DNA of 64,000 nucleotides from Candidatus Binatia bacterium (GCA_963667495.1 OY763426.1:4878927-4942926); one strand, 5' to 3'; shown: positions 2,698-27,180, counted from the stretch's first letter. Program-made: numbers and translations. Notes: generated by a model from the letters alone, not told the origin.

Positions 2698-4452
2698 CTA
2701 ATCCTCTCCACTGCCCTGTCGCAATTGCGCGGTTTTTATAGCATCAACCTCGAATGTTATTGGATCCACCACTACCCCATAGTCTCGCTGTGCGCTTTCA
2801 ATAGAAACCAATCCATCCTTTACGTCTTGTACGACCTTTTCGATAGCACGCTTTTTGGGGTCGCCAAATCCGCCTCCGCCACTTGAGAGCAGTTCCACTT
2901 CATCTCTTTTGGACAGGGTACTCATGGAGTTGACGGCGACCTCTTCCGTCCGGCCGTCGGCATAGTGAAAAATCTGCCGGTTGGGCGGTGCGCCCTGTCC
3001 TCCCCGCAGGCCGAACGGTGCCGTGGCGGGTTGGGTACCGCTCCCGAAGTTCGCACACGCAATATTGTCAGCCTCGACCCGCCAGCGATAAGTCACACCC
3101 ATGCCACCCCGCCATTGCCCGGCTCCGGCGCTATCCTGACAATACTCAAACTGCTCAATGAAATACGGGTTGACCAGTTCGTGCAGTTCAGGGTCCGGCG
3201 AACGCAGTCCCCCCAGACATATGGCAGTCCCGATGTGGTCCCAGCCGTCAAAGCCGGCAGTGGCTCCGCCGCCACCTTTACTTAAAAAGTGAATCTCCCC
3301 GAACGGCCGCCCGGTACGTGGATTCATACCCGTGGTGGCTGGCGCACACCAGCGTCCCCAGGCGGCCTGAACACGCTCAGGGATAACCTCCGCCAGGGCC
3401 AACCAGATTGCTTCGGTTATGGTTTCGCCGGTTAAGACCGTACAGGCCGTGCTTGGTGCTGGCTCGACCGGATTCACCACACTCCCGCTCGGCGCCACGA
3501 TGGAAACCGGCCGCATGGCCCCTTCGTTATGTGGCACCTCGGAGTTGACCAGAGTAAACAACGCCAGGTAGCTCGCGGAAGCGGTATTGGCAAACGGACT
3601 GTTGACATAGCCGGGGACCTGACCGTCTGAGCCTGAGTAATCCAACGCTACAGACTCGTCCTGCACTTCGACTTTGACCCGGATGGTCACCGGCCGGTCG
3701 TGGACAACACCGTCGTTGTCGATCTGTCGCTCGGCCAGATACCTGCCATTCGGGATCGTTCGAATTTCCTCGCGCATGTGTTTTTCCGAGGCATCCAGGA
3801 GTTGCTCAATAACCTGCTCGACAACGGCGATTCCATGTTTCTTCACCAGCGCGGAGATATTGCGTTCGCCCAGGCCGGCGGCGCCAACCAGACACTGCAA
3901 ATCCCCCTCGACCAAAAACCGCAGGCGCACATTGGACACAATCATTTCCCACAGGCCGCGATTGATCTTTCCCTGCTCATAGAGTTTTGCGGGTGGAATC
4001 CGTAGCCCCTCGTCCCACACATCGCGTGCTTCCGGGTGATAACCCGCCGCACCGCCACCGCCTGTGTCTGCCTGATGTCCTTTCGTGACCGCCCAGAAGC
4101 GCAGTTCGCCATCAATATAAACCGGCTTGGCAATCGTAAAATCAGGCGGATGATTATTGCCCCGATACGGATCGTTGAGAATGAAGACGTCGCCCTCGTG
4201 CGTATCGTCGGCATAGGTCTCGGCAATCGAACGGACCGCCCAGGGCGTTGCAGCAAGGAGGATTGGAATATAAGCCGTCTGAGCGACCAGACGGAGCTTG
4301 CGGTCATAAATAGCGGTCACAAAATCGCGCGCCTCACTAAAAATGGGCGAGCGCGAGGTCCGCAGCATGGTCTGGCCCATTTCTTTGGTAATCGAGTCCA
4401 AGCGGTTCGCAATGACCGATACAAGGATCGGATCAATCCTGTCCGTTTGCAT
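2698..4452 (-). CDS. hyuB: Hydantoinase B / oxoprolinase family protein (HyuB-type)
   Basis: 585 aa starting MQTDRIDPILVSVIANRL. Conserved N-methylhydantoinase B / acetone-carboxylase-type blocks (ILNDPYRGNNHPPDFT, GLRIPPAKLYEQG). The start overlaps the end of hyuA. Confidence 0.85.
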   Translation of the reverse strand: MQTDRIDPILVSVIANRLDSITKEMGQTMLRTSRSPIFSEARDFVTAIYDRKLRLVAQTAYIPILLAATPWAVRSIAETYADDTHEGDVFILNDPYRGNNHPPDFTIAKPVYIDGELRFWAVTKGHQADTGGGGAAGYHPEARDVWDEGLRIPPAKLYEQGKINRGLWEMIVSNVRLRFLVEGDLQCLVGAAGLGERNISALVKKHGIAVVEQVIEQLLDASEKHMREEIRTIPNGRYLAERQIDNDGVVHDRPVTIRVKVEVQDESVALDYSGSDGQVPGYVNSPFANTASASYLALFTLVNSEVPHNEGAMRPVSIVAPSGSVVNPVEPAPSTACTVLTGETITEAIWLALAEVIPERVQAAWGRWCAPATTGMNPRTGRPFGEIHFLSKGGGGATAGFDGWDHIGTAICLGGLRSPDPELHELVNPYFIEQFEYCQDSAGAGQWRGGMGVTYRWRVEADNIACANFGSGTQPATAPFGLRGGQGAPPNRQIFHYADGRTEEVAVNSMSTLSKRDEVELLSSGGGGFGDPKKRAIEKVVQDVKDGLVSIESAQRDYGVVVDPITFEVDAIKTAQLRQGSGED

Positions 4453-6571
4453 TCCACGCCCCTTCCGCACCGGCCGGGCGACCGCCCAACGCTGTCAAGA
4501 GTTCGCCAAGTGGTCGCTCGGCCAGATGCATGGCATAATTACGGTAGGCATCACAGACCAGACGATAGCCAGGCGGGACCAGGACGGTGGTGTTGGACTG
4601 TTCGATCAAGGCCGGTCCGGTGAGAGCCATGCCGCAATCGAACTGCTCCCCAGCATACACAGAAACCTGATGCGGCGTACCGGAGAAATACGCTTGACGC
4701 TTGCCTTTGAGCGCGACAGTCGGGTCCGCGTCTCCAAGAAGACGTGGCGTAAGTCTCGGTTTCTCTGTAAGTCCCAGCGCCTTGACCCGCAGATTGATCA
4801 TTTCCAAAGCAGCTCCCGGCATGGCATATCCATAGAGCGCCTCATGGAGACGATGAAAACGTGCGGCGACTACCGCCAGTTCGGGTTCCGAGAGAGGGGG
4901 CTGGACCGGGACTTCGACCTCATGAAATTGGCCAACGTAGCGCACATCGAAGGTTGTGCGAATCTGTATTTTCTCCGTTGGGATGCCTTCCGACGCTAAG
5001 GTTGCTCGTGCCTGCTCTTCAATCTCCCTCAGGGTACGGTTGATCTCGTCGGGAACGATGGCGTCCCACTCTCGGGTGAAGGTCTGAACGTAGTCGTGCT
5101 GTAAATCAGAGATCAGCATGCCGGCCGCACAGAATACCGATGACTCCTGGGGAATCACAACCAGCGGAATATCCAATTCTCGGGCTATCATCCCGGCGTG
5201 CAACGGTCCGGCTCCACCGGCAACCACAAGAGCAAACTCACGCGGATCATAGCCCCGTTCGACCGAAACACCCTGAAGCGCCGTCGCCATGTTAGCGTTC
5301 ACAATGCGATAGATACCCTCGGCGGCCTCAATAGGAGAGAGGCCCAAGGGCTCGGCGATCGTGTTTGTCACCGCACGCTGAGCCCCATTATAATCGAGGG
5401 GCATCTCCCCGCCTAACAATCCATCTGAGGAAAGATAGCCAAGAACCAAGTTGGCATCTGTCACTGTGGGTTCGACTCCGCCGCGGCCATAACATACTGG
5501 ACCTGGCTCAGCTCCGGCACTCTTGGGTCCGACCTGGAGAATCCCCCCGGCATCGATCCAGGCAATACTACCCCCACCGGCGCCAACCGTGTGGATATCC
5601 AGCACGGGCAGAGCCAATCGATGGCCGCCAATCTCCCCCTCCGTTGTTGTCACCGGCTGACGGTCGTGAATGAGACAAGCATCAAAACTGGTCCCGCCCA
5701 TGTCAACCGTGATCACGTCACGCAGGGCGTAGGTGTCAGCATAGAACACGCCGGCCATGGGTCCGCCAGCCGGACCGGATAGGAGGGTATTCGCGGCAAA
5801 GCGGCGTGTCAGGTGGGGCGACATCACACCGCCATTCGACTGCATAATGAGCAAGACGCCGGGAAATCCCGATTCGTCCAACTGACTTTCAAGCTGAGTC
5901 AGATAACGCGACAGCGGGGGGCCAACGCTGGCGTTGAGGACGGTGGTGGAATGTCGCTCATAGGCCCGAATTTGCGGCAACACTTCAGAAGATAAGGACA
6001 CATACACCTTGGGTAAGGCCTCCTGGATAAGCTGACCGGTTCGTCGCTCATGGGCCGGATTTAAGAAAGACCACAGATAACTGACCGCCACCGCTTGGAT
6101 AGCATGCGTCCGGATGTGTGCAATCGCGTCCATCACATCCGCTTCGTGCAGGGGGGTTACCACCGCACCCTCAACATTGACCCGTTCGGTAATGGGATAA
6201 ATATGCGTCCGAGGAACCAAAGGTGGTGGCGGGCCGTATTTGCTATCGTACTGACGTTTGCGCAGCCCCCGCCGCATATTGAGCACATCGCGAAAGCCGC
6301 GCGTCGTCAGCAAGGCGGTCTTGGCCCCTTCCCCAGTCAAGACGGCGTTGGTCGTAATGGTCGTCCCATGAACGATGACGCTGACGCGGCCAAGGAAATC
6401 CGACAGCTCACGCTCGAAAGAAGCGGCAATCTTGCGGAGTCCCTGCAAGACGCCGACCGCGGGCTGGTGGGGCGTAGTCGGCGTCTTATAGATTTGAGCC
6501 GCGCCCTGCGAATCCGTGACAAGAAAGTCGGTGAACGTGCCGCCGACGTCAATGCCGATTTTGTATTTCAT
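4433..6571 (-). CDS. hyuA: Hydantoinase A / oxoprolinase family protein (HyuA-type)
   Basis: The start MKYKIGIDVGGTFTDFLV (actin-like ATPase fold motif) overlaps the DUF35 stop as ATGA. The family is recognisable along the whole length. Confidence 0.85.
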   Translation of the reverse strand: MKYKIGIDVGGTFTDFLVTDSQGAAQIYKTPTTPHQPAVGVLQGLRKIAASFERELSDFLGRVSVIVHGTTITTNAVLTGEGAKTALLTTRGFRDVLNMRRGLRKRQYDSKYGPPPPLVPRTHIYPITERVNVEGAVVTPLHEADVMDAIAHIRTHAIQAVAVSYLWSFLNPAHERRTGQLIQEALPKVYVSLSSEVLPQIRAYERHSTTVLNASVGPPLSRYLTQLESQLDESGFPGVLLIMQSNGGVMSPHLTRRFAANTLLSGPAGGPMAGVFYADTYALRDVITVDMGGTSFDACLIHDRQPVTTTEGEIGGHRLALPVLDIHTVGAGGGSIAWIDAGGILQVGPKSAGAEPGPVCYGRGGVEPTVTDANLVLGYLSSDGLLGGEMPLDYNGAQRAVTNTIAEPLGLSPIEAAEGIYRIVNANMATALQGVSVERGYDPREFALVVAGGAGPLHAGMIARELDIPLVVIPQESSVFCAAGMLISDLQHDYVQTFTREWDAIVPDEINRTLREIEEQARATLASEGIPTEKIQIRTTFDVRYVGQFHEVEVPVQPPLSEPELAVVAARFHRLHEALYGYAMPGAALEMINLRVKALGLTEKPRLTPRLLGDADPTVALKGKRQAYFSGTPHQVSVYAGEQFDCGMALTGPALIEQSNTTVLVPPGYRLVCDAYRNYAMHLAERPLGELLTALGGRPAGAEGAWNANGQD

Positions 6572-21727: not shown

Positions 21728-21804
21728 CGGCACAGAGAGCACGGGAAAAGGCGACCAACCCGTACCCGTGAATCAGCCCCTGAATCAGAAAGTGCAGGCT
21801 CTTC

Positions 21805-23859
21805 ATGTCCTTCAAACTTGGCGTTGATGTCGGTGGCACGTTTACCGACCTTATCCTTTTTGACGAGGAGAATGGTCGGCAGGTCCGCGCCAAAACTCCG
21901 TCTACCCCCAGCGATCCATCGGTGGGCGTGCTGGCCGGGATTGAGAAAATCTGCCGCTCGGCCAACATCTCGCCCGGCGACATCGCCCAGATTATGCACG
22001 GGACGACCGTGGCAACCAACGCTGTCCTTGAGGGCAAGGGCGCCAAGGTTGGCCTGATTACAACCCAAGGCTTTAAGCAAATCCTCCACCTGGCGCGCTC
22101 CTGGACGCCTGGTCCACTCGCCGGCTGGATGATTATGGAGAAGCCGGACCCGCCCGCGGCCATCGAATACACCCGCGAGGCCATTGAGCGTATCGACACC
22201 CGCGGGCAGGTGGTCACCCCGCTGGACGAGGACGCGTTGCGTGCCGACCTGCAAGATTTGGGTGCCCAAGGAATCGAAGCGCTGACGATTTCCCTCATTA
22301 ATTCGTACGCCAATCAAAGCCATGAAAAGCGCGTCAAAGAGATTGCCCAGGAGGTGCTACCCAACACGCCGATTACCGCTTCGTCGGAAGTCTTGCCGGA
22401 GTTTCGGGAATACGAACGCGCCCTCACCGCGGTGATGAATTCCTACGTGCGGCCGAAAGTCGCCCAGTATATGCGCAGCTTTGCAGATCAGCTCACAGCG
22501 CACGGCCTGAAGGCGGCCGTCAATATTCTCCGTTCTGACGCCGGCCTGATGACCTTGCGTATGGCACAGGAACGACCGGTGTACGCCGTGATGTCAGGCC
22601 CGGCCGGTGGCGTTGCGGGGGCGCTGTATATTGCCAAAAAGGCCGGCTTCCCGCATCTGTTGACCCTCGATATGGGCGGCACGTCCACCGACGTGGCCCT
22701 GTGTCAGGATGGCAGCCAGACGATTTCGCGGGAAACGACCCTGGGCTATTTCCCGATTAAGGTTCCTTCGGTTGATGTCCGCAGTATCGGGGCCGGCGGC
22801 GGCTCCATTGCGCATGTGCCCGAGATTACCAGCGCGCTCCGGGTCGGTCCGCAGAGTGCCGGCGCCGCTCCCGGTCCGGCCAGCTATGGCCAGGGTGGGA
22901 CGGAGCCCACGGTGACAGACGCCAACGTGGTCCTGGGCCATCTGCCCCCCAATCTGCTGGGCGGCGAGATGACGCTGGATACGGAGGCCGCCCACACCGC
23001 GGTCGAGCGTATTGGAAAAAAACTCGGCCTCGATGTATATCAGACCGCCCAGGGCATCCTGGACATCGTGAATGAGAATATGCATGGGGCCTTACGTTTG
23101 GTCTCCGTCCAGCGCGGCTACGATCCACGCAATTTCGCCCTGGCCGCATTTGGCGGCGCCGGGCCGTTGCACGCCAACGCGGTGGCTAAGCTTATTGGCG
23201 CGTTTCCGGTTATCGTCCCCCCCGCACCGGGCATTTTATGCGCAATGGGCGATGTGTGTTGCGACTACCGGGAAGAATTCTCTCGGACCGTCTTCCGCAC
23301 CCTGGATCAGATTACCGCGCCGGAGGTCATTGAGATCCTCGAAGGGCTGAGCGCGGAGGCGACCGGCTGGCTGGAGCAGGAAGGCATCTCTCGACAGCAG
23401 CAGCGGATTTTCTATAACGCCGACATGCGCTACTTCCGCCAGGGCTATGAACTGCCGATGACGACAACACTCGACGAGTTACAAACCAACGGAACGGCGG
23501 CGCTGGCGGAACAATTTCACGCCCTACACGAACAGCTCTACCGTTTTCGTCTGGACGCCGAGTGTGAGATCGTCAACCTTCGTGCGGTCGCCCTCGGCAC
23601 GGGAACGACGTTGCACTGGCCCGAGGGCGAAACGGACGGACCGTCCGCGGCCCACGCCCAAGTTGACGAACACCGGATTTATTTTGACGGCAACTTCTTG
23701 ACCACCCCGATTTATGATCGGGCCAAGCTCACACCGGGCAATCGCCTGCCCGGCCCGGCGATTGTGACCGAGATGGACTCAACGACGGTCGTGTTACCGG
23801 ATTATGCGGCAGAGGTAGATCGCTATGCGAATATTCTGATCCGACCAAGAGAACAGTAA
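21805..23859 (+). CDS. hyuA: Hydantoinase A / oxoprolinase family protein (second copy)
   Basis: MSFKLGVDVGGTFTDLILFD..., full-length family match. Confidence 0.85.
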   Translation: MSFKLGVDVGGTFTDLILFDEENGRQVRAKTPSTPSDPSVGVLAGIEKICRSANISPGDIAQIMHGTTVATNAVLEGKGAKVGLITTQGFKQILHLARSWTPGPLAGWMIMEKPDPPAAIEYTREAIERIDTRGQVVTPLDEDALRADLQDLGAQGIEALTISLINSYANQSHEKRVKEIAQEVLPNTPITASSEVLPEFREYERALTAVMNSYVRPKVAQYMRSFADQLTAHGLKAAVNILRSDAGLMTLRMAQERPVYAVMSGPAGGVAGALYIAKKAGFPHLLTLDMGGTSTDVALCQDGSQTISRETTLGYFPIKVPSVDVRSIGAGGGSIAHVPEITSALRVGPQSAGAAPGPASYGQGGTEPTVTDANVVLGHLPPNLLGGEMTLDTEAAHTAVERIGKKLGLDVYQTAQGILDIVNENMHGALRLVSVQRGYDPRNFALAAFGGAGPLHANAVAKLIGAFPVIVPPAPGILCAMGDVCCDYREEFSRTVFRTLDQITAPEVIEILEGLSAEATGWLEQEGISRQQQRIFYNADMRYFRQGYELPMTTTLDELQTNGTAALAEQFHALHEQLYRFRLDAECEIVNLRAVALGTGTTLHWPEGETDGPSAAHAQVDEHRIYFDGNFLTTPIYDRAKLTPGNRLPGPAIVTEMDSTTVVLPDYAAEVDRYANILIRPREQ

Positions 23860-23861
23860 AG

Positions 23862-24761
23862 ATGAATAATATCTTGAAACGTTTGCAGACGGTTCTTGGA
23901 TCAACGGAATCCTGTCAAGTTCCAGGCTGCGGGAATCCCGTGAACCAGAGAGGACACAAACTGTGCTACAGCCACTATAAGCAGAGAAGGTCCAACACGC
24001 CCGTCGAAAAAAATGGAAGGAGCACCAGGAAGGCCCCACACTCATCCCCTGTGCGGGCATCTAGCCGCAGGAGCGATACGGAGATGCTCACCGCCTCAAA
24101 GCTCGGCAAGGCCCTAGACATACCCAGCGCTCAGGTCAACTTACTCCTGGCCGAGTTGGGCTGGGTCGAGAAGTCCACCGAGGGTTGGAAAGTCACCAGC
24201 CAGGGCGAAAGGCAGGGCGGACGAACCCGAACATTCAAACAGAACGGCACCCCCTATGCTATTTGGCCAGACAGACTGCTCCAGAGCAAAGTTTTTCTCG
24301 CCGCGGTGAACGAGTTCGGCAAAGAGACTTACAAAAAGACTTACAAAGAGACTGCGGAATCTATCGCGGGTCCGCCCGTCGTCGCCGAAAAGCCACACGT
24401 CGCGGACCTCCGCACTCGCTTTCCTGCCAAATATCGAGCCGCCGACGGACATTACGTCCGCTCGCGTGCGGAGCTATCTATTGATAATTGGCTCTACATG
24501 CATGCCATCGTCCACGCCTACGAGCGGAAATTGCCCGTCGAGGAGGATGCCTACTATGACTTCTATCTGCCTCAGGGCAAAGTATATATTGAGTACTGGG
24601 GAATGGAAAAGGACCCGGCTTACGCACAGCGAAAGAAAGAGAAGCAAGTAATCTACGCTCGGTATGGCCTGAACTTGGTCGAGTTGGCGGACGCCGAACT
24701 CGAGAACCTTGACGACAACCTGGCACGGCTCCTGCTCCCCTTCGGCGTTGACTGTACCTGA
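23862..24761 (+). CDS. Zinc-finger plus wHTH-like plus PD-(D/E)XK nuclease-like protein, inserted between hyuA and hyuB
   Basis: Starts 3 nt after the hyuA stop. N-terminal C-x-VPGCG-x9-LCYSHY (HNH-associated zinc-ribbon pattern). C-terminal SRAEL...DFYLPQGKVYIEYWG...KQVIYARYGLNLVEL resembles Vsr/DUF559/DUF2726-type restriction-endonuclease-fold motifs. Confidence 0.5.
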   Translation: MNNILKRLQTVLGSTESCQVPGCGNPVNQRGHKLCYSHYKQRRSNTPVEKNGRSTRKAPHSSPVRASSRRSDTEMLTASKLGKALDIPSAQVNLLLAELGWVEKSTEGWKVTSQGERQGGRTRTFKQNGTPYAIWPDRLLQSKVFLAAVNEFGKETYKKTYKETAESIAGPPVVAEKPHVADLRTRFPAKYRAADGHYVRSRAELSIDNWLYMHAIVHAYERKLPVEEDAYYDFYLPQGKVYIEYWGMEKDPAYAQRKKEKQVIYARYGLNLVELADAELENLDDNLARLLLPFGVDCT

Positions 24762-24836
24762 CGAAACTCCAATGCGCCGGTTAAGAGCTGAATTAGCCTG
24801 ACTGATTCGACCACAAGTATAATCGAGGGAGAATCA

Positions 24837-25040
24837 ATGAACACACAGTTGACCATGGTGTATTGGAAGTCGGATACATTCTGGCTGGGCAAACTCCTCG
24901 AACATCCCGAAATCATGACTCAGGGCGAGACGCTGGAAGAATTGGAAGAAAATCTTAAAGATGCTTACTTGCTGATGGCCATGGATGACGTTCCAGAGGA
25001 CTACCGGATGAAAACAATTCGCTGTGAAGTCCGGACATGA
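24837..25040 (+). CDS. hicB: HicB-family antitoxin
   Basis: WLGKLLEHPEIMTQGETLEELEENLKDAYLLM fits the HicB_lk_antitox pattern. Overlaps hicA by ATGA. Confidence 0.6.
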   Translation: MNTQLTMVYWKSDTFWLGKLLEHPEIMTQGETLEELEENLKDAYLLMAMDDVPEDYRMKTIRCEVRT

Positions 25041-25228
25041 AGCGGAATGAGTTTGTCCGCCGTCTTCTGGCCGAGGGATGCGTTCTACACAGACACGGTG
25101 CCAGGCATGACCTCTATCTCAACCCTTCCACAGGAGAGAAACAGCCGGTGCCGAGACATACAGAGATTGACAACCGTTTGGTCAGGCATATTCGGAAAAA
25201 CCTGGGACTGAAGGACAGCATAAACTAA
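25037..25228 (+). CDS. hicA: HicA-family toxin (YcfA-like mRNA interferase)
   Basis: RRLLAEGCVLHRHGARHDLYLNPSTGEKQPVPRH...RHIRKNLGL matches the HicA consensus (G-[SA]-H ... VP.H ... GL). Confidence 0.65.
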   Translation: MKRNEFVRRLLAEGCVLHRHGARHDLYLNPSTGEKQPVPRHTEIDNRLVRHIRKNLGLKDSIN

Positions 25229-25290
25229 CGTGCTGTAGGCGTAGGTCTCGTTGCCCTTCGCTCATCCGACCTATGTAGAGGAGCAGTGTT

Positions 25291-27180
25291 ATGCGCGATG
25301 TGAAAATTGCTGAGATTCCAGATATCGAGGTCGATCCCGTTACTCTCGACATTATCGAGAGTGCACTCAAGAATTACCGCTATGAAATGGATGCGGTGCT
25401 GTTCCGCACGGCCATGTCACCGGTGATCCGTGAGCAGCACGACGAATTCCCCATGATCTGCGACCCCAACGGCCGGATGGTCGTTGGACAGTTTGGCTCC
25501 TATATCCGGGAGATGATGGAGCGTTTTGACCAGCCGCTCTATCCCGGTGATGTCATTCTGCTCAACGACCCCTATCTGTGCGGGGGGGCTATTTCCCACA
25601 TCAACGACTTTCTCGTGCTGGTGCCCGTCTTTGACGGCGACGAACTCATCGGCTGGACCTCGATGTTCGGCCATCAAATGGACGTGGGCGGCCCGCTGCC
25701 CGGCTCGTTTCCGACCAACGCGACCTCAATCTTTGGTGAGGGACTCCGCATTCCGCCCGTCAAACTGTTTGAAAAAGGAGAACTCAACCAGGCCGTCCTG
25801 GATCTGATTCTGAACAATGTCCGCATCCCGATGATGAACCGCTCGGACCTCATGGGGATTGTGGCTGGCTGTAAAACCGCTGAGCAGCGTGTACGGGAAC
25901 TGTGTGAGCGTTTTGGGCGGGATATCTATCTGGCCGCCTGCCAGGCATTACTGGACCGGACCTATCGGGCCGTCCAGACCCTCATCCAGCGCAATATCCC
26001 GACTGAGCCCCAGTCCTTCGAGGACTATATTGATGATGACGGGCTCGGCAACGGCCCGTTCAAAATGAAACTCACCATCTGGCGTGAGGGCGACAAGGCG
26101 ATTTTCGATTGGACCGGCACCGACCCGCAGGCGGTTGGGCCGATCAATTTCTATCTCAATCCGGGCATGTTCAAGATGTTCATCGGCGTCTACCTCATCA
26201 TGGTCTACGACCCCCAGATTCTGTTTAACGACGGCTTTTACGATCTGATAGACGCCCGCATGCCGGACGGCTCCCTCCTCCATCCGAAATTCCCCGCTCC
26301 GCTGGGCTGCCGCACCCATGCCCTGGCCCGCCTGTTTGATGTCATGGGCGGCTGTCTCGGCCAGCAGAGCCCGGAACTGACAACTGCGGCCGGCTACGGC
26401 ACCAGCCCTCACTTGCTGTACAGCGGCAACGATAAGGATGACAACTTCTTCTTTATTATGGAGATTGGCTATGGCGGCATTCCGGGCCGACCGATTGGGG
26501 ACGGTATGGATGGTCACTCCTGGTGGCCGCTCTTCACCAATATTCCAACCGAATACCTCGAAAGCTATTGCCCCCTGCGCGTGGATCGCTATTCGTCCGT
26601 CATCGACTCCGGCGGAGCCGGTTTGCATCGGGGCGGGAACGGCATCGACAAATGGTACACCTTTCTCGAACCGGGCGAGATCGCCATTCACGACGACCGC
26701 TGGCTGACTCCCCCCTGGGGGATTCTCGGGGGCAAACCGGGGATGCGCTCGACGAAAATTCTGGTCCACACCGATGGAACCCGAACCGTCCTGCCCTCAA
26801 AATGCGACCAGATCAAAGTCGAACCGGGCGACCAGCTCATCTTCCAAACCGCAGGCGGCGGTGGCTGGGGCGACCCGCTGGAACGCGACATCGAAAAAGT
26901 CCGGGTTGATGTCGTGCGCGAGTTGGTGTCCGTGAAAAAAGCTGCCTCCGATTACGGTGTGGTGTGCGACCCAGAAACATCTGAAGTGGACGAGGAGGCC
27001 ACCCAAGCGTTGCGGCAGCGCATGAAGGAGAGCCGGGGCGAGCTACAGACGTTCGATTTTGGTCCGCCACTCCAAGAACTCCTGGCACGCTGTAAAGAGG
27101 AGACTGGGCTGGAGCCGCCCACGGCTCCCAGCTTACCACCCGGCTGGGAAACAAACGGGGTGAAGAAAGTCGCGGCCTGA
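25291..27180 (+). CDS. hyuB: Hydantoinase B / oxoprolinase family protein (second copy)
   Basis: ILLNDPYLCGGAISHINDF, GLRIPPVKLFEKG. Full-length family match. GAGGAG SD upstream. Confidence 0.85.
   Translation: MRDVKIAEIPDIEVDPVTLDIIESALKNYRYEMDAVLFRTAMSPVIREQHDEFPMICDPNGRMVVGQFGSYIREMMERFDQPLYPGDVILLNDPYLCGGAISHINDFLVLVPVFDGDELIGWTSMFGHQMDVGGPLPGSFPTNATSIFGEGLRIPPVKLFEKGELNQAVLDLILNNVRIPMMNRSDLMGIVAGCKTAEQRVRELCERFGRDIYLAACQALLDRTYRAVQTLIQRNIPTEPQSFEDYIDDDGLGNGPFKMKLTIWREGDKAIFDWTGTDPQAVGPINFYLNPGMFKMFIGVYLIMVYDPQILFNDGFYDLIDARMPDGSLLHPKFPAPLGCRTHALARLFDVMGGCLGQQSPELTTAAGYGTSPHLLYSGNDKDDNFFFIMEIGYGGIPGRPIGDGMDGHSWWPLFTNIPTEYLESYCPLRVDRYSSVIDSGGAGLHRGGNGIDKWYTFLEPGEIAIHDDRWLTPPWGILGGKPGMRSTKILVHTDGTRTVLPSKCDQIKVEPGDQLIFQTAGGGGWGDPLERDIEKVRVDVVRELVSVKKAASDYGVVCDPETSEVDEEATQALRQRMKESRGELQTFDFGPPLQELLARCKEETGLEPPTAPSLPPGWETNGVKKVAA

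Follow-up and report, generated by a model that had tools for sequence, protein, structure and literature searches.

A probable small hotspot without mobility genes of its own at the hyuA/hyuB junction of Candidatus Binatia

Hotspots of horizontal gene transfer that lack mobile elements, together with core defence hotspots, have been described previously (Oliveira et al. 2017, PMC5635113; Johnson et al. 2023, PMC10250203), and they provide the nearest parallel for the locus considered here, the junction between hyuA and hyuB, which encode the A and B subunits of a hydantoinase/oxoprolinase, in a 64,000-nucleotide stretch of a Candidatus Binatia bacterium genome (GCA_963667495.1, OY763426.1:4878927-4942926; this whole stretch is referred to below as the window). 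The two genes are separated by an insert of 1.4 kb that encodes a 299-aa protein, here called X, and a hicBA pair. As in the described hotspots, the content of this slot is variable and lies between core genes, an integrase is absent, the flanks are mosaic, and the cargo is of the defence and toxin-antitoxin type. The slot differs from them in its position at the intercistronic junction of two subunit genes of one enzyme, inside an operon, in its tiny arrays (0.25-3.8 kb) with strict co-orientation and an apparent reliance on operon transcription, and in the replacement by each array of about the last 60 nt of hyuA.

A second parallel is offered by the PADLOC candidate systems (PDC), of which 145 were predicted from their embedding inside BREX, DISARM or type I restriction-modification operons (Payne et al. 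2024, bioRxiv 10.1101/2024.01.29.577857). X is likewise embedded, and co-oriented, inside another operon, but its host operon is a metabolic one of the hydantoinase/oxoprolinase family and not BREX, DISARM or type I restriction-modification. Our reading, to which we assign a probability of roughly 0.6, is that in Candidatus Binatia the hyuA/hyuB junction forms a small hypervariable hotspot which has no mobility genes of its own and is turned over by recombination anchored in its flanks; the window would then represent one state of the slot, with an X module stacked upstream of a hicBA module. The features of the locus are as follows (related loci are designated L001, L002 and so on; the core is the short hyuA-end motif discussed below).

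21805-23859, + strand: hyuA, hydantoinase/oxoprolinase A subunit, left flank of the slot (Pfam Hydant_A_N, Hydantoinase_A and Hydant_A_C, E down to 8e-91)
23797-23859, + strand: array-type replacement terminus of hyuA, about its last 60 nt, encoding ...AEVDRYANILIRPREQ* (25 mismatches to L022)
23836-23846, + strand: core copy 1, CTGATCCGACC, the LIRP codons of the functional hyuA end
23862-24761, + strand: X, 299 aa, zinc-ribbon, winged helix-turn-helix (wHTH) and Vsr-like nuclease protein of the PADLOC PDC-S69 candidate family
23913-23975, + strand: CCCH zinc-binding motif of X (C18, C23, C35, H38)
24075-24329, + strand: central wHTH-like DNA-binding domain of X (residues 72-156)
24432-24758, + strand: Vsr/DUF559-like PD-(D/E)XK domain of X (residues 191-299)
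24762-24804, + strand: sequence flanking the X module on its 3' side, with TAGCCTGACTG (24794-24804) as its end; also present after X in L004 and L023
24802-24836, + strand: core copy 2, CTGATTCGACC (24802-24812), and hicB leader, a relic hyuA-end-to-hicB junction
24837-25040, + strand: short HicB-like antitoxin, 67 aa, N-domain only
25037-25228, + strand: HicA toxin, 63 aa (Pfam HicA_toxin; PHROG toxin family)
25261-25290, + strand: relic hyuA terminus with core copy 3, CTCATCCGACC, and native hyuB leader (in-frame TAG 25276-25278; GAGGAG ribosome-binding site 25278-25283)
25291-27180, + strand: hyuB, hydantoinase/oxoprolinase B subunit, right flank of the slot (Pfam Hydantoinase_B, 1e-148)

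Occupancy of the slot across Candidatus Binatia

The gene boundaries drawn in the first-pass annotation, which had been made from the window alone, proved exact (hyuA end at 23859, X, hicB, hicA, and hyuB start at 25291). The ATG of X lies 2 nt after the hyuA stop codon (TAA-AG-ATG), the hicB-like open reading frame (ORF) and hicA overlap by 4 nt (ATGA), and the GC content, about 0.60 in hyuA and hyuB, is 0.49-0.55 over the insert. Orthologs of hyuA are 61-99% identical (58 loci) and those of hyuB 71-100% identical. The window holds a second hyuA/hyuB pair (2698-6571, - strand), a distant paralog (38% and 29% identical) in which the two genes overlap and no insert is present.

Occupancy was surveyed in 43 Binatia species-representative loci in which both the hyuA end and the hyuB start were resolved. 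The slot is empty in 17 of these, with a gap of 16-127 nt, and occupied in 26; all eight outgroup loci, from Actinomycetota and Ktedonobacteraceae, are empty. At empty sites the hyuA end reads ...NILI(Q/R)Pxx-stop and is followed by a ribosome-binding site and the hyuB ATG, and at one of them HyuB is 100% identical to that of the window. Near-identical relatives have empty sites, with gaps of 16-56 nt, which bears out the initial suggestion that a contiguous hyuA-hyuB operon had been split. Because close relatives have empty sites, the segment between hyuA and hyuB is an insertion and not an ancestral arrangement; the three genes of the window are not common to all relatives, the same arrangement being shared by L001-L003 only. 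The occupied states are listed below.

hicBA only: L012, L020, L061, L041, L045, L060
hicB only: L040, L065
DUF433, mostly with a DUF5615 PIN-like partner: L015, L024, L026, L030, L043, L046, L037 (in L037, DUF433 with further + strand ORFs)
X only: L004 (same contig as L018)
X and DUF433: L016
X and hicBA: window, L001-L003
X, DUF433 and hicBA: L023
hicB fragment and X: L025
511-aa HicB-fusion, X, 141-aa ORF and DUF433: L010
hicBA and GmrSD: L019
GmrSD only: L021
SNase and X: L005, L035
DUF433, DUF5615 and hicB: L039
DUF4258, then a + strand zinc-finger ORF (YgiT/MqsA type by motifs only): L034
beta-carbonic anhydrase with other cargo: L044, L066
over 7 kb of sequence ahead of hyuB, with an IS5 transposase in it: L067

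At least ten cargo families are represented over the 26 occupied loci, with no integrase among them, and every recurrent family lies on the + strand, co-oriented with hyuAB; up to four modules are stacked in one slot. The GmrSD cargo matches HEC-06, an experimentally validated defence system, at 1e-79. A search for integrases and transposases found none, whether inside the gaps or in the 6 kb to each side, the exception being the IS5 element of L067; its transposase was also the sole result of an integrase search of the largest gaps (L066, L067). The insert had been viewed at first as a single three-gene cassette, an idea that was rejected, as X and hicBA assort separately (X alone in L004 and with DUF433 in L016; hicBA alone in L012, L020 and L061) and thus constitute two independent modules.

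Several contigs in the comparison (L028, L030, L036, L038, L042, L043, L045, L048), which encode a HyuB 86-92% identical to the Binatia protein, are labelled as 'uncultured Enterobacteriaceae' or 'Klebsiella pneumoniae' metagenome-assembled genomes (MAGs), probably through binning or labelling errors. The operon has a second small insertion slot: in L001-L003 an orphan PhdYeFM-type antitoxin gene (3603-3875) lies between a 110-aa gene and hyuA, and its counterpart in the window (21728-21804) is a 77-nt spacer.

Module junctions and the history of the slot

The flanks of the slot carry an apparent recombination signal. The nearest relative of the window by its flanks is L022, an empty locus with hyuA 97-99% and hyuB 96-98% identical at the nucleotide level, and yet the last 60 nt of hyuA hold 25 mismatches between the two, with a sharp break in identity. 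The crowding of mismatches into this short segment indicates that the array carries its own hyuA terminus, and the length replaced (about 60 nt) agrees with that of a 66-nt repeat of the hyuA end that flanks the inserts of L005 (perfect, 100%) and L035 (98.5%). The best-matching relative is L016 (X and DUF433) on the hyuA side and L012 (hicBA only) on the hyuB side, so that the window locus is a mosaic.

Shorter copies of the hyuA end mark the junctions of the window itself. The degenerate 11-mer YTSATYCGRCC has four matches in the 64 kb, where 1.07 are expected, and three of the four belong to the insert, on the + strand and one per junction: at 23836, which is the true hyuA end (LIRP), at 24802 in the X-to-hicB spacer, and at 25261, with the hyuB ATG 30 nt downstream. 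In translation the third copy is L-I-R-P-M-stop, followed by GAGGAG and the hyuB ATG, the layout found at empty junctions, and this relic terminus with the hyuB leader is kept in every hicBA-bearing locus of the close group. The second copy, with the next 24 nt, can be aligned to the point where hyuA meets hicB in the hicBA-only loci L012, L020 and L061 and in L065 (hicB only), a junction type that also occurs after DUF433 in L023. On the other side of this boundary, the TAGCCTGACTG end also follows the DUF433 gene in L010, L037 and L023 and is thus a right end common to X and DUF433 modules. A 38-nt copy of the hyuA end lies upstream of X in L010. With an nhmmer profile of the hyuA terminus, the long relics of L005 and L035 were the only ones recovered, the 11-nt copies of the window being too short for it. 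In L005, moreover, an N-terminal fragment of DUF433 is fused straight onto the hyuA relic, which from its sequence is a scar of illegitimate recombination.

We propose that cargo would be gained, lost and reshuffled mainly through recombination anchored in the conserved hyuA and hyuB genes, and that some of these events would be illegitimate or single-ended and so duplicate the 3' end of hyuA; each array would bring its own hyuA terminus of about 60 nt, and relic termini would stay behind at the junctions between modules.

The same junctions bear on a different explanation, namely that the slot is an integron-like or CIME-like (cis-mobilizable element) cassette array in which a recombinase encoded elsewhere recognises the hyuA 3' core (ATYCGRCC, sometimes in a hairpin) and inserts promoterless circular cassettes in one direction. 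CIMEs, tandem accretion at the 3' end of a gene and integron arrays share with the slot the stacking of modules parted by copies of the target-gene 3' end, the uniform orientation and the lack of a recombinase in cis. One core copy is present at each of the three junctions of the window, and likewise in L001 and L023; co-orientation is strict with up to four modules in a stack, the 66-nt flanking repeats are att-like, and a 9-bp hairpin, with the core in its right arm, often comes after the common right end of the X and DUF433 modules and is significant in L010 (z = -3.4). Conversely, no recombinase was found in or near any locus, the search covering 6 kb on either side, and neither a cognate integrase nor an attC-type site came to light. 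The core is hyuA coding sequence (LIRP) and is conserved for protein reasons; it is missing at the right boundary of many modules (GmrSD, DUF433/DUF5615, carbonic anhydrase) and from a comparable duplication at a second site described below, and no attC-like structure is present. The hairpin occurs at some junctions only, is not attC-like and was found at this junction type alone, with exact matches to GTCGGATTA...TAATCCGAC in only two of 69 loci, a count that also led us to reject it as a genome-wide repetitive extragenic palindromic (REP)-like element, and for the spacers of the window itself folding is no stronger than after shuffling. Junctions are heterogeneous, and some are clearly illegitimate scars. 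We therefore consider a cassette array rather unlikely.

Short TAAGAG(C/T)T repeats occur in some empty or relic hyuA-hyuB spacers (L068:6873-7001, as inverted arrays; L057:6917-7001; L005:7095-7157). The 3' flank of X in the window contains a similar GTTAAGAGCTGAAT (24781-24793), and this flank may derive from an old hyuA-hyuB spacer.

In the close group the divergence of X at synonymous sites (dS, 0.13-0.54) tracks that of hyuB (0.25-0.44), which indicates a long co-residence. In L005 the dS of X is 0.63 and that of hyuB 2.66, and X has therefore reached the same slot in a divergent lineage by horizontal transfer; the X cassette of this locus is also different in having its own TATAAT and ribosome-binding site. 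An ancestral arrangement, with X and hicBA as old residents of the operon that are possibly tied to HyuAB function and empty sites as the outcome of repeated losses, would account for the agreement in dS within the close group, and for the presence of X at this junction in lineages where the protein has only 64-73% identity to the X of the window. It is at odds with the compact native junction of the 17 empty Binatia loci, with the drop in GC over the insert, with the different cargo of near-identical genomes, and with the far smaller dS of X than of hyuB in L005. Above all, the uniformly empty outgroups and the relic hyuA termini inside arrays, which give the insertions a polarity, largely refute it, and we reject it as very improbable.

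A homolog of X (65% identical) occupies a second Binatia site, in a 2.3-kb insert downstream of a uvrD-like gene, whose 3' end and terminator make up an 813-nt direct repeat that flanks the insert. This is the same duplication signature as at hyuA, anchored in homology to the upstream gene, with no shared core motif. In L007 (7654-7784) at least five tandem copies of a 27-nt unit, which are lacking in L008, interrupt the relic 3' fragment of uvrD on the downstream side of the X homolog. Around X homologs in other phyla no flanking direct repeats were found, save for imperfect 35-38-nt repeats in L070 (3236-3284 and 10347-10385) and L071 (3236-3284 and 8853-8890); these flank a variable island with an X homolog, a Schlafen/AlbA_2 ATPase gene, which is missing in L071, and an SLFN-g3 helicase gene, and they may be the boundaries of the island.

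Protein X and the HicBA pair

X matches the PADLOC PDC-S69 profile over nearly its full length (E = 1.6e-73, 245.9 bits; residues 70-297 of X, profile positions 74-287 of 289), and its C-terminus also matches the PD-(D/E)XK ends of the PADLOC profiles HEAT_CxxC_PD-DEXK and PDC-S68. No Pfam or NCBIfam family was matched at E <= 1, searches of PDB sequences, run with X by itself and with a profile of 42 sequences, returned nothing meaningful, and a literature search found no mention of PDC-S69. The family comprises 1366 matches, most of them unannotated. Four homologs (P0079, P0082, P0094, P0120) carry the label 'glycerol kinase' in NCBI and UniRef, which looks like a propagated misannotation, as the kinase domain is absent.

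An alignment of 42 family members shows an invariant central wHTH-like domain, invariant residues in the C-terminal domain (E204, D208, D233, E244, E249, R257, K261), and two alternative forms of the N-terminus, a CCCH zinc ribbon (the form of the window) or a further copy of the wHTH; among homologs of the zinc-ribbon form the CCCH motif is kept, and the predicted local distance difference test score (pLDDT) there is about 90. The structural model of X shows a Vsr-like catalytic fold. The first reading of X is thus sustained for the central helix-turn-helix type domain and the conserved CCCH zinc-binding N-terminus, and for a Vsr-like fold in the model, without a Pfam Vsr or DUF559 match; profiles for HNH, Vsr, DUF559, DUF2726 and NERD gave no match at E <= 1, and the description of the zinc ribbon as HNH-associated was dropped for want of an HNH match. 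X is a functional gene under purifying selection, with a ratio of nonsynonymous to synonymous substitution (dN/dS) of 0.14-0.26 overall and about 0.05-0.1 in the nuclease domain; the zinc ribbon and the first linker evolve faster. Within X, window positions 24320-24355 hold three tandem 12-nt units (CAAAGAGACTTA-like) that encode the repeat KETYKKTYKETA in a disordered linker, and L004 is one unit short, so that the length of the linker varies.

We take X to be a DNA-binding protein (zinc ribbon plus wHTH) with a nuclease domain of Vsr-like type, which would most likely work on its own as a defence nuclease in the manner of the PDC-S69 candidates. A defence role, close to the small defence module entertained at the outset, is plausible by analogy, from the PDC-S69 match and from the neighbourhoods of distant homologs, which lie in defence-island-like or plasmid contexts; in other phyla they adjoin NERD, DUF2726, Mrr, Schlafen-like or CHAT genes, or are carried on an element with a TrwC relaxase.

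The alternative raised at the outset was that X is a free-standing homing endonuclease that cuts the empty hyuA/hyuB junction, so that repair templated by an allele with X copies X in and co-converts the flanking hyuA terminus, with hicBA as a hitch-hiker or addiction module. Several observations speak for it: the N-terminal DNA-binding domains of X are modular and fast-evolving, X is patchily distributed among near-identical genomes, it has entered precisely this slot in a divergent lineage (L005) by horizontal transfer, and its homolog at the uvrD site is again accompanied by a duplicated upstream 3' end. An intact X gene is missing, however, from 21 of the 26 occupied GTDB loci, and hence the slot fills without X. 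The EDxHD homing endonucleases, exemplified by I-Bth0305I (PDB 3R3P; E170, D196, N208, H213 and D222; PMC3239194), have a Vsr-like catalytic fold as X does, but when the residues are compared by spacing the motif is only partly matched in X, with the acidic residues present, W246 at the His/Asn position and no conserved His. NUMOD motifs are absent from X, which is intergenic and free-standing, outside any intron or intein, and Rfam detected no intron or other RNA family in the insert. Purifying selection and a dS like that of the flanks indicate long vertical residence, a scan of 2.9 million viral contigs gave only three X-like matches, all weak, and homologs in other phyla lie behind upstream regions of their own, lack flanking repeats and have defence-like neighbourhoods. 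Nor are target duplications a product of homing. The case for a homing endonuclease is weakened accordingly, and we regard it as unlikely.

A related thought is that PDC-S69-type nucleases, instead of or besides being immune effectors, are selfish genes that embed in operons and promote their own insertion downstream of conserved genes. The duplicated 3' end of the upstream gene is a signature at both the hyuA and the uvrD sites in Binatia; it is not general to the X family, since homologs in other phyla lack flanking repeats. We hold this to be quite doubtful, but if it were true, part of the 'guilt-by-embedding' signal for defence would reflect a habit of mobility and not immunity.

The second module is more familiar. 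HicA scores above the Pfam cut-off (HicA_toxin, PF07927, 9.8e-9, 35.6 bits against 27 bits) and matches phrog_353 'toxin' at 3e-13, so the hicA call is genuine. The hicB call is specific, in that the PDB matches of the 67-aa ORF are exclusively to 'Antitoxin HicB' N-domains, but its scores are weak (E 0.064 for these, and 0.033, below the cut-off, for a UPF0150-like Pfam match). The HicA domain, a small acidic partner with weak similarity to the HicB N-domain and the 4-nt gene overlap are as in other HicAB type II systems; the window pair differs in having the antitoxin first and in the length of that antitoxin (138-148 aa in solved HicB proteins), which lacks the C-terminal helix-turn-helix or ribbon-helix-helix DNA-binding domain used for autoregulation, and no promoter of its own was detected. 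HicBA is probably an ordinary toxin-antitoxin pair of type II, its antitoxin short and without a DNA-binding domain. In L010 (4463-5998), and also in L011, the first 67 aa of a 511-aa ORF are 90% identical to the HicB of the window, and for the other 440 aa or so Pfam and PHROG gave no match and PADLOC none that was meaningful; the 3' end of the ORF runs in frame into a relic hyuA terminus just upstream of X, and related ORFs occur in L066 (4081-5669). Either the 511-aa ORF encodes a new fusion protein with a HicB domain, or it is chimeric.

Expression and wider meaning

A scan for promoters and terminators detected neither a sigma-70-like promoter nor an intrinsic terminator in the insert; a perfect TATAAT at 24818-24823 has no -35 partner. 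The original ribosome-binding site of hyuB is preserved 7 nt upstream of its ATG. With cargo that is co-oriented and tightly packed, no terminator detected and the hyuB ribosome-binding site intact, X, hicBA and hyuB are most likely expressed by read-through of the hyuA transcript, and X is probably coupled translationally to hyuA.

Several points weigh against flank-anchored turnover of the slot and a defence role for X. The recombination mechanism is deduced from scars rather than observed, and the core at three junctions together with strict co-orientation would also fit a site-specific cassette system. The relic copies in the window measure just 11 nt, and it was only once they had been seen that the degenerate motif was defined. 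The related loci are all MAGs or metagenome contigs, yet many of them are complete chromosomes from long reads, and separate assemblies concur. In structure X matches a homing endonuclease best, and, PDC-S69 being only a candidate, the defence role of X amounts to guilt by association. The data do show the insertion, the modular make-up of the slot, the relic termini, the mosaic flanks, with their break of identity and differing best relatives, and the fold and selection regime of X; the recombination mechanism, expression by read-through and the defence role are inferred from them.

If this reading is correct, the compact junction between the subunit genes of a metabolic enzyme can serve as a durable docking slot for toxin-antitoxin and defence genes, with the orientation of the cargo always letting the operon read through, and the idea of embedded defence genes would be extended to operons that are not themselves defensive. 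In public databases, homologs of X appear to be misnamed as 'glycerol kinase'. The slot also points to uncharacterised proteins as candidates for defence testing, namely X (PDC-S69) and the 511-aa HicB-fusion protein, and its dozens of near-isogenic empty and occupied alleles amount to a natural experiment on how hotspots without mobility genes gain their cargo.

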